Origin: Escherichia coli
Lineage (GTDB): Bacteria; Pseudomonadota; Gammaproteobacteria; Enterobacterales; Enterobacteriaceae
Assembly: GCF_030384885.1 (NCBI RefSeq)
Contig: NZ_CP128613.1
Length of the DNA stretch: 64,000 nt
Reading direction: 5' to 3' (one strand)
The position numbers are program-made. This document shows positions 53,801 through 56,800 of the stretch, piece by piece. Numbering within the stretch: the first letter of the stretch is position 1; the number at the start of each line of letters is the position of its first letter.

Positions 53801-56800
53801 GAGCACAGGCGTGTTCCCTGATTGAGTGTGGCTGCACTCCCCGCAGCTACGCCAAAACGGACCATCTCTTCAAGAGAGGCATTTTCTGCCAGTTTCAGTG
53901 TCATCGCGCCGACCATGCTGTCACCAGCGCCAACGGTGCTCTGGCTTTTCACCGGTGGTGGCACAACCTGAATGCAGTTTTCACTATCAACGCCCAGCGC
54001 CCCTTGTGGACCCAGGGAAACGACAACTCGTTTGGCCTTGCCGCTATTAACGATTTCCTGCGCGGCTTTGCGGACATCGTCTGGCTGGGTGAGTTCGCGA
54101 TTCACCAGCGCACTGAGTTCTTTTTGGTTAGGCTTAACCAACTCGATGTTACCAATCGCCAGTGCTGCACTTAACGCTTCGCCAGAACTGTCGACGATAC
54201 AGCGGATCCCTTGGTTATGCGCAGCGGAAATCAGTTGGGTTAATTTTTCTAGCTTCACACCTGGCGGCAGGCTTCCGCTTATGACCAGGATAGCACCGGA
54301 TTCAATTTCCAGAACTTGCTCTTCAAGCTGGCGAAACTCATCTTCACTTAATGCCGCGCCTGGCATGACAAAACGATACTGCTCACCGCTTGCTTCCACA
54401 TGTACGTGTAAATTCTGCCGGGTCCAGTCTTTGGCTTCTACAGTAGCGACGGGGACATTTTCATCTGCCAACAGTGAAACCAGATGTTCGCCGGTCGCAC
54501 CACCCGCCGGGAAGATCGCTGTGGCACTGCCTCCAAGATGGGCAATGGCGCGGGCGACGTTGATGCCGCCGCCTCCGGGTTCGAATACCGGTGCGGTACA
54601 GCGCAGCTTTCCTTCGGGATAAATTTGCGGGGTAATTGTTGCGCTATCGAGAGAGGGCGCAAGTGTCAACGTATAGATACGTACCATCATTTCCTCCTAT
54701 AGGCTGATTTCAGTCTGGCACCGAATCAGCGGAAAGTGAAGAAATTAACAATATGATTTATTAGAGCTTTATTTAAAATTTTGCAGATAAATATATATAA
54801 ATAAAAATCTGTTTTCGCCACATGCTTATTCAAAAAATGAAATAAGAATACATTGCTAAGTTATTCGCGCCTTTTTATAATTCGTTACCTTTCCAGGGAC
54901 GCTAATCTTTGATCCTTAAGAAAGTTTCCGGGACCGCGAAGGTCTCTTTTTTTGTTGTACGGACTCTTGATAAATGAAGCTTTTGAAGACAGTTCCTGCC
55001 ATCGTTATGTTGGCGGGGGGCATGTTTGCGTCACTGAATGCAGCTGCCGATGATTCCGTTTTTACTGTCATGGACGATCCTGCCAGCGCTAAAAAACCTT
55101 TCGAAGGTAATCTGAATGCAGGATATCTTGCACAATCAGGCAATACGAAAAGCTCCTCACTTACGGCTGACACTACCATGACCTGGTATGGACATACCAC
55201 TGCCTGGTCGCTGTGGGGGAACGCCAGTAATACCTCTTCTAATGATGAGCGTTCTTCAGAAAAATATGCGGCGGGCGGGCGTAGCCGTTTTAATTTAACT
55301 GATTATGACTATTTATTTGGGCAGGCAAGCTGGCTGACAGACCGTTATAACGGCTATCGAGAGCGCGATGTGTTGACCGCGGGTTATGGTCGCCAGTTTT
55401 TGAATGGCCCGGTACACAGTTTCCGCTTTGAATTCGGTCCAGGTGTGCGTTACGACAAATATACCGACAATGCCAGTGAAACCCAGCCGCTGGGTTATGC
55501 CTCCGGGGCTTATGCATGGCAGTTGACTGACAACGCTAAATTTACGCAGGGTGTTTCAGTCTTTGGCGCGGAAGACACAACGCTGAACTCTGAAAGCGCA
55601 TTAAATGTTGCTATTAATGAACATTTTGGACTGAAGGTGGCTTACAACGTCACATGGAACTCTGAACCTCCAGAGTCTGCACCGGAACATACCGATCGTC
55701 GGACAACCTTATCGCTGGGCTACAGCATGTAACATTATCTGCCGGACCGTAGTATGCGGTCTGGCTGTTTTCGTTTGTCACTGCTCAGCCCCAAATCATT
55801 GCTGCCCAACGTAGCAACAACATAGCGCCACAGATTGCCAGTAGCACCACCACCATCTTCCAGTGTTTTTTATCAAAGCGTTTAGTCGGCATACCAGTGT
55901 CCTGCATATCTCTTGTGCGTGATAACGGAGTGTAACAAAAGGGACAGGCAACAAGGGATTTTTTGCAATTGCAGCCGTCGGGTGGCGTTGTGCACCCGGT
56001 CACTGTTATTGAGTTTAAAGTATATGTATCAACATATACATCGTAAATATTTAGTTATAAATACGCCTGTAGTTCATCTGGACTAAAGCTCAGGCTTTGG
56101 CTGATTACATTTATAGCTGCATAATATGTTTCTACCGTTTTATAATGATTATGATGAATGGCTATATGAACAGCTGATATGTTGTCATAATTTTTAGCGG
56201 CCAACAGTGTGAATAACTGATGTTGACTAAAAGAATATTTTTTTGCAAAAGTACACAGCGTCGATATATAAGATAGCACGACGTCTTCATTACCCTTGCT
56301 CATGGCGATGTATAAAGCAGGGGTTCCATGTGCTGTTGCGCCTTTTAATAAATCCATGATGTTAATTTTACTGAGGTTATATTTAAAGGCGATTCCATAA
56401 ATTTTTGAGAGGAACCGTGTGACACACAAAGGGTGATTATTTTCCATTGCAGCGAATAATCCTGGTTCACCGTCGTGTATTTTCATTGCTAAAATATCCA
56501 TTACCAGCTTTTTGTTTAAAAGCTCTTGTGCTATTGGAGTGGTTAATGTATTAAGGAAGATATTGATTATTTCATCGAATCCATACAACATGGTAATGTA
56601 GAGTCCAGGTGTGTCATTGGCACTTTTAGTTTGCAGTAACTTAACTAGATTACTTTTATGAATGATGCGACTATTTACCAGTGACTGAATTTCTTGCATA
56701 AATATTTTTACGTTGTCAGTATGTCCGTTCATCATAGCCAGAAATAAAGCAGGAGTACCAACGCTATTCTGCGCAGTTATTATTTTAATGATTTCTTTTT

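Follow-up and report, generated by a model that had tools for sequence, protein, structure and literature searches.

We suggest that the leader of ydiY, in a 64,000-nucleotide (nt) stretch of Escherichia coli DNA (assembly GCF_030384885.1, contig NZ_CP128613.1; hereafter the window), contains a leaky attenuator. In this model, which we regard as probable, transcripts from a condition-dependent promoter are split by a weak intrinsic terminator into a stable 62-nt leader RNA and the ydiY mRNA, and a hairpin at the 5' end protects both. A sigma-70 promoter would start the RNA at position 54889, and RNA polymerase would then reach an intrinsic terminator, consisting of a 6-base-pair (bp) hairpin followed by seven U residues (U7), 41-65 nt downstream of the start. 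Part of the transcripts would stop there, with a 3' end at 54950, giving the 62-nt leader RNA with its 5' stem-loop and 3' hairpin, while the remaining transcripts would read through and give ydiY mRNA. We infer that termination and not processing makes the 3' end, that only some transcripts read through, that both products owe stability to the 5' stem-loop, and that the strength of the terminator or some factor acting in trans sets the fraction of read-through.

Both ends of the proposed leader RNA coincide with ends mapped in vivo. The window runs as the reverse complement of the K-12 numbering, with position p corresponding to U00096.3 1806083 + (54974 - p), and in the pfkB-ydiY intergenic region it differs from K-12 at just two bases, 54763 and 54940, the latter being a base of the hairpin loop. 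For ydiY, supplementary file 2 of Kim et al. 2012 (PMC3415461) gives a transcription start site (TSS) at 1804192(-) in U00096.2 with 11 reads and a 5' untranslated region (UTR) of 85 nt; this site corresponds to window position 54889 (U00096.3 1806168), 8 nt past the -10 hexamer, and its flanking sequence ends in TATAATTCGTTACC. The curated Term-seq 3' ends of Adams et al. 2021 (PMC7815308, supplementary files 1 and 3) include one at 1806107(-), 24 nt upstream of ydiY, which has a mean of 31,086 reads and is classed as "orphan"; on the M63 0.4 sheet of the same study, the trpL attenuator has 35,983 reads. With the coordinate mapping checked, this 3' end falls at 54950, and the two ends together delimit an RNA of 62 nt (54889-54950).

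An earlier note on this DNA, made from the sequence alone, had placed a TTGCTA-N17-TATAAT promoter at 54853-54881, with a start expected near 54888, and a GGGACC-gcgaa-GGTCTC hairpin followed by T7, ending 20 nt before the ATG, and it had predicted a short transcript of about 65 nt. Promoter, hairpin and T7 are all present as described, transcription starts 1 nt from the expected position, and the mapped ends give a species of nearly the predicted length. The note had also called the promoter strong. This description holds for the sequence, which is near consensus (10 of 12 hexamer positions match) and invariant in more than 20 genera, and less so for its use, given the 11 TSS reads and a 3' end that was curated in minimal medium only. 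As for the proposal that the element is either an attenuator or an sRNA (small RNA) of about 65 nt, the two mapped ends support it as a whole and are compatible with both of its alternatives.

Features of the ydiY leader and its surroundings, in window coordinates
Feature	Position	Strand	Description
A/T-rich inverted repeat CTTATTCAAAAAATGAAATAAG	54825..54846	+	just 5' of the -35 hexamer; centred about 53.5 nt upstream of the TSS
sigma-70-type promoter, -35 TTGCTA, 17-nt spacer, -10 TATAAT	54853..54881	+	from motif scan; -35 at 54853-58, -10 at 54876-81; hexamers invariant in 57 unique leaders
TSS of ydiY and leader RNA	54889	+	start mapped by Kim et al. 2012
5'-terminal stem-loop	54889..54924	+	CUUUC (54889-93)/GAAAG (54920-24); GGA (54897-99)/UCC (54913-15)
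Terminator hairpin GGGACC-GCGAA-GGUCUC	54930..54946	+	6 bp with one G-U, 5-nt loop, about -9.5 kcal/mol including flanking bases
U7 tract	54947..54953	+	mapped RNA 3' end at 54950, the fourth U
Near-invariant block GUUGUACGGACU	54954..54965	+	Shine-Dalgarno-like GGA at 54961-63; majority identity 0.98
ydiY coding sequence (DUF481 outer-membrane protein)	54974..55732	+	first 20 nt (54974-54993) conserved including synonymous sites

The position of the terminator relative to ydiY would make the element an attenuator. The 20 nt between the end of the U7 tract and the ATG are too short for a promoter and the only mapped TSS is that at 54889; therefore, ydiY needs read-through. ydiY is expressed, as its mRNA is detectable in chimeras from RIL-seq (sequencing of interacting RNAs after their ligation) and its protein is present as one row of a proteome.

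The alternative that promoter-like and terminator-like motifs simply co-occur here by chance and have no function receives practically no weight from us. Motif counts alone are within chance: the 64-kb window has one match to TTG-N20-TATAAT compared with 0.64 expected, and 46/100 shuffles have at least one, while within 3 kb there are four promoter-like sites (4.5 expected) and seven terminator-like sites (3.3 +/- 1.8 expected), and the folding energy is unremarkable. However, both RNA ends are mapped in vivo, the motifs are invariant while neighbouring intergenic DNA diverges, and the stem has undergone compensatory changes. Thus, the mapped TSS, the mapped 3' end and conservation well above that of the flanking intergenic DNA argue that the feature is real, and the chance reading is essentially excluded.

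To follow the element beyond E. coli, YdiY was scanned for in one genome per GTDB species, which gave 80 loci, 78 of them with enough upstream sequence. Promoter and leader are present in 75 of these 78 assessable loci, and the genera that have the element include Escherichia, Salmonella, Citrobacter, Enterobacter, Lelliottia, Leclercia, Klebsiella, Raoultella, Kosakonia, Phytobacter, Pluralibacter, Franconibacter and Siccibacter, among others. Conservation forms an island of about 170 nt (54824-54993), in which majority identity is 0.8-0.99, compared with 0.43-0.8 in the half of the intergenic region next to pfkB. In more than 20 genera of Enterobacteriaceae, this island takes in the inverted repeat, the promoter, the leader, the GUUGUACGGACU block and the start of the ydiY coding sequence, and it is often more conserved than the coding sequence itself. 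Where the island varies, it does so in the loops of the first hairpin (apical and internal), in the loop of the terminator and in the spacer that precedes the ATG. For the initial 20 nt of the coding sequence, majority identity is 0.96-0.99 across genera, which suggests a constraint at the RNA level on the translation-initiation region of ydiY. The GUUGUACGGACU block lies outside the 62-nt RNA and, therefore, belongs to the read-through mRNA; within it, GUUGUAYGGA is kept even where YdiY is just 69-71% identical. Hairpin and ATG are 26-30 nt apart in 56/57 unique leaders; K. pneumoniae, which has an insert before the ATG, is the one that departs from this.

At the edges of this distribution, Buttiauxella, Shimwellia, Mangrovibacter, Entomohabitans and two metagenomic loci all retain the hairpin, the U run and GUUGUAYGGA; YdiY is 69-71% identical in the two metagenomic loci, one of which matches the covariance model only weakly. 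Erwinia and Pantoea share the synteny, but have a different leader without a terminator, and the element is lacking in Serratia, in Rahnella and in three loci that we call type B (L012, L054 and L065). In all of these, ydiY has another upstream region. The type B upstream sequence is unrelated and replaces promoter and leader in Citrobacter amalonaticus S646, Phytobacter massiliensis and a metagenome-assembled genome. In K. pneumoniae (L069), 67 nt of type B sequence (2434-2500) lie between the conserved leader and the ATG, and a 14-codon remnant of the old start is left. In three Raoultella loci (L071, L072 and L074), an insertion of about 125 nt (around 2290-2420) is present in the apical loop of the 5' stem-loop, with arms, terminator and promoter intact; the insertion has no Rfam match and is possibly a small mobile or repeat element.

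Comparison of the leaders gives good support to the conclusion that the terminator hairpin is kept by compensatory changes and would, thus, be maintained by selection. In the E. coli stem, 4/6 pairs are G-C and the U7 tract follows directly. Across genera, 97-98% of the alignment cells of the stem are paired. Divergent taxa have the compensatory stems GAGACC/GGUCUC, AGGACC/GGUCCU, GGAACC/GGUUUC, GGGGCCG/CGGCUUC, AGGCUC/GGGCCU and GGCCG/CGGUU; double changes have occurred at three of the six stem pairs and alternative stems in six lineages, each in one or a few sequences. In a covariance-model alignment, which is fitted to the structure and in which each double change comes from only one sequence, 6 pairs are doubly changed compared with 0.6 in shuffles, and 0/500 shuffles reach the observed value. 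Moreover, at one pair G-U alternates with A-U, which is consistent with an RNA of the + strand only. Every leader has a short stem of low to moderate stability (-3.5 to -11.5 kcal/mol), in line with what partial termination would predict. At least six T are found within 8 nt after the stem in 50 of the 57 unique leaders. In seven loci (L062, L066, L067, L069, L070, L079 and L080), which belong to Klebsiella species and Superficieibacter electus, the U tract has decayed to 3-5 T in 8 nt while the hairpin and the GUUGUACGGAC block are kept.

The 5' stem-loop begins at the first transcribed nucleotide, and its internal and apical loops are variable. It is predicted by single-sequence folds in nearly all 57 leaders, and RNAalifold retains its lower helix. 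It consists mostly of invariant complementary blocks, with 80-92% of cells paired and few compensatory cases, and its covariation is weak: the signal is modest, one slid control scored equally high, and an arm-swap test was not significant (1153/5000 permutations reached the observed value). The E. coli leader also has an equally stable alternative fold that competes with the 5' stem-loop. The terminated RNA consists of two independent hairpins. Two further pairings were considered and rejected. For long-range sequestration of the Shine-Dalgarno sequence, the long-range pairing in the E. coli minimum-energy fold is not conserved and the consensus contains only a 3-bp UCC-GGA contact. For an internal antiterminator, there is no conserved alternative pairing of the 5' arm of the terminator, whose hairpin is present in the consensus folds of all contexts.

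The retention of the hairpin in Klebsiella species without a good U tract bears on how the 3' end at 54950 arises. It would fit a reading in which the hairpin is mainly a structural or protein-binding element of the 5' UTR, for example affecting mRNA stability or binding Hfq or CsrA next to the Shine-Dalgarno sequence, and in which the 3' end is generated by an endonuclease cutting within the U-rich stretch and an exonuclease trimming as far as the hairpin. Conservation is highest in the neighbouring GUUGUACGGACU block, and we take this block to resemble a CsrA site of the A(N)GGA type; Hfq RIL-seq also recovers ydiY mRNA, in chimeras with the small RNA SdsR, and Adams et al. 2021 (PMC7815308) ascribe most 3' ends in 5' UTRs to processing. 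However, a hairpin followed by U7 is a textbook intrinsic terminator, the mapped 3' end lies inside the tract, and at least six U are kept by 50 of the 57 unique leaders. Moreover, GGA motifs other than that of the Shine-Dalgarno sequence are not conserved (GAGACC in Citrobacter and Enterobacter, GGGU in Citrobacter). We therefore consider this explanation improbable.

A second question is whether the 62-nt RNA itself, and not ydiY read-through, is the main product. In that case, it would be a trans-acting sRNA or sponge of the type represented by IspZ and ChiZ, bound by Hfq or ProQ and pairing with other RNAs, with read-through being secondary. We see this as a tentative possibility. The promoter is near consensus and invariant, the short RNA is abundant, with Term-seq reads comparable to those of trpL, and it is a discrete transcript (54889-54950) with its own TSS and a U-tailed terminator. 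A terminator hairpin with a U tail is the usual Hfq-binding module, and the anatomy is that of IspZ, a 5' UTR RNA with a terminator of a 6-bp stem and a U run. Most genera share UCAUUGAUCC, a partly paired segment located both in the apical loop and next to it, and K. pneumoniae retains promoter, leader and hairpin even though 67 nt now separate its leader from the ydiY ATG. By contrast, the element is single copy and never found apart from ydiY, conservation continues beyond the 3' end of the 62-nt RNA, the apical loop tolerates the insertion in Raoultella, and Klebsiella species have lost the U tail. Also, the sRNA predictions based on RIL-seq of Bar 2021 contain no partner for the ydiY 5' UTR, and the RIL-seq table for nitrogen starvation (PMC10954441), which includes growth in minimal medium, lists no 5' UTR partner although it lists ydiY(CDS)-SdsR, that is, the coding sequence; absence from these two supplements is weak evidence. 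Because the element is always tied to ydiY, because the conserved block runs past the terminator into the translation-initiation region, which is present in the read-through mRNA only, and because these RIL-seq supplements list no partner, we favor the attenuator acting in cis over the sRNA.

In nitrogen-starved E. coli, 54 and 44 SdsR-ydiY(CDS) chimeras were found in two of three N-24 replicates (PMC10954441). SdsR nt 33-41 (UUUUAGCGC) are perfectly complementary to 55086-55094, and nt 67-78 to 55432-55443. Thus, ydiY may be an SdsR target. As a partner of the leader, SdsR was rejected, because the chimeras are with the coding sequence and the best match of the seed region, at 55086-94, is outside the leader.

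Attenuation by a leader peptide would account for read-through by a pyrBI-like mechanism. An upstream open reading frame (uORF) of 22 codons extends from a TTG at 54909 to a TGA that overlaps the ydiY ATG, and a ribosome on it would block the hairpin and couple translation into ydiY. The frame is open in E. coli, ends at an ATGA overlap in 32/61 leaders, and has a GGA 9-10 nt upstream of the TTG. However, the Klebsiella group has GCG or ACG in place of the TTG, the frame is broken in L030, L039, L055 and L081 as well as in E. albertii, which is the nearest relative, premature stops are present in L046 and L073, and variable positions have no codon periodicity. This comparative analysis of the frame led us to reject a uORF through the terminator, and leader-peptide attenuation is very improbable and essentially excluded.

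Several observations weigh against the leaky attenuator that we favor. First, the leader was searched for an antiterminator, an upstream ORF and a ligand-type structure that could give "regulated" attenuation its mechanism, and none was found. Second, a weaker promoter could in principle do the work of a constitutive leaky stop, so that the strict conservation is explained only in part. Third, retention of the hairpin in Klebsiella despite the lost U tract indicates that the hairpin may serve another purpose. Fourth, folding energy is no better than in shuffles (z = -0.78 for the 62-nt RNA; -0.64 and +0.45 in other tests). Finally, the read support of the TSS is low, and Adams et al. 2021 (PMC7815308) curated the 3' end of the ydiY leader in M63 glucose alone and in neither condition with lysogeny broth (LB). 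The Rho and terminator scores of that study cover LB 0.4 only, a sheet from which this 3' end is absent, and the supplement of TERMITe 2025 has no entry for it.

The ydiY promoter appears to be condition-dependent. This view relies on the curation of the 3' end in minimal medium only, on the assignment of ydiY to an iModulon that is pH-responsive and related to guanosine tetraphosphate (ppGpp) (PMC12862375), and on Nac, which a table of PMC10100675 gives among the regulators of ydiY. Upstream of the -35 hexamer, the CTTATTCAAAAAATGAAATAAG repeat has a majority identity of 0.89-0.97 over 55 leaders, compared with 0.43-0.8 for the intergenic DNA on the pfkB side, and it could be a candidate UP element or transcription-factor site. 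The repeat holds an ATTCA-N5-TGAAA dyad, which matches the T-N11-A pattern and is LysR-type-like; Nac is a LysR-type regulator.

In the window, pfkB (53758-54690, - strand) and ydiY form a divergent pair with 283 bp between them. The ydiY leader is present in one copy in the E. coli genomes, and no further copies were found in the window or in the other ydiY loci that were fetched. Downstream, on the - strand, espL1/arpB is an intact open reading frame of 632 aa (56055-57953) for an ankyrin-repeat protein resembling type III effectors; K-12 has a pseudogene instead, and the frame is shifted in strain N3, the intergenic region of which is 100% identical to that of the window. Elsewhere in the window, Rfam matches at gathering score identify the sRNA ES036 (CssrF) at 37854-37896 (-) and the Phe leader (pheM) at 61769-61893 (+).

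Both ends of the leader RNA are already rows in published supplementary tables, whereas the leader element itself is unnamed, unannotated and absent from Rfam. The RefSeq annotation of 5,420 complete E. coli genomes has nothing at the ydiY leader, the main text of Adams 2021 does not mention "ydiY", and in the literature mentioning ydiY we found nothing concerning its leader. On our best reading, the element is a deeply conserved intrinsic terminator or attenuator in a 5' UTR, with a leader RNA as by-product, and in this respect it has ordinary anatomy. Among elements that terminate transcription prematurely in 5' UTRs, of which few, such as IspZ and ChiZ, have been studied, it would be a further example with deep conservation. 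It also concerns the gene for a widespread, acid-inducible DUF481 outer-membrane protein of uncharacterised function and regulation, with a control region of about 170 nt that is more conserved than the gene. If read-through is merely constitutive and leaky, the value of the finding is limited to annotation. We also speculate, as a rather unlikely but more far-reaching option, that the leader has its own function as a core riboregulator of enterobacteria, either as a trans-acting 62-nt RNA (sponge or sRNA), whose promoter ranks among the best conserved in the region, or as an attenuator that senses a condition (pH, ppGpp or an RNA-binding protein) and gates this outer-membrane protein; if true, this would represent a family absent from Rfam. 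As a candidate attenuator or 5' UTR-derived sRNA in E. coli and Salmonella, the element is cheap to test, and the decayed U tracts of Klebsiella and Superficieibacter electus provide a natural test of a role of the hairpin beyond termination.

Among known systems, no family of Rfam 15 reaches its gathering score on the ydiY leader, and the sole weak match is isrD (RF01388; 17.1 bits compared with a gathering score of 37, E = 0.86). The likeness consists of the terminator hairpin sequence ACCGCG.AGGU and a U tail; because only the terminator aligns, the leader is not a member of this family. A closer parallel is IspZ, the 81/60-nt RNA of the ispU (uppS) 5' UTR, which ends at a 6-bp stem followed by U8 (Adams 2021, PMC7815308). 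Like IspZ, the ydiY leader RNA, with 62 nt and U7, starts at the promoter of its own gene and stops at an intrinsic terminator with a 6-bp stem in the 5' UTR, the downstream gene needs read-through, and both RNAs were detected by the same Term-seq study. However, northern blotting has validated IspZ, Hfq binds it, and the base pairing by which it sponges OxyS is proven (PMC7815308), while the ydiY leader RNA is a row in a supplementary table, curated in M63 only, and has no partner in two supplements derived from RIL-seq. The classical leader-peptide attenuators trpL and pheM/pheL, the latter being encoded in the window, also have a promoter-proximal intrinsic terminator before a structural gene and an abundant short leader transcript; the ydiY leader differs from them in having neither a conserved leader ORF nor an alternative antiterminator hairpin. 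Finally, the overall arrangement recalls the ompA-type stabiliser hairpins in the 5' UTRs of outer-membrane-protein mRNAs, reportedly the subject of work by Emory, Bouvet and Belasco in 1992. There too, a 5'-terminal stem-loop is said to be followed by a second hairpin and by a U-rich single strand before the Shine-Dalgarno sequence. The ompA hairpins are reportedly not terminators, whereas in ydiY the second hairpin with its U7 tract coincides with a mapped 3' end.

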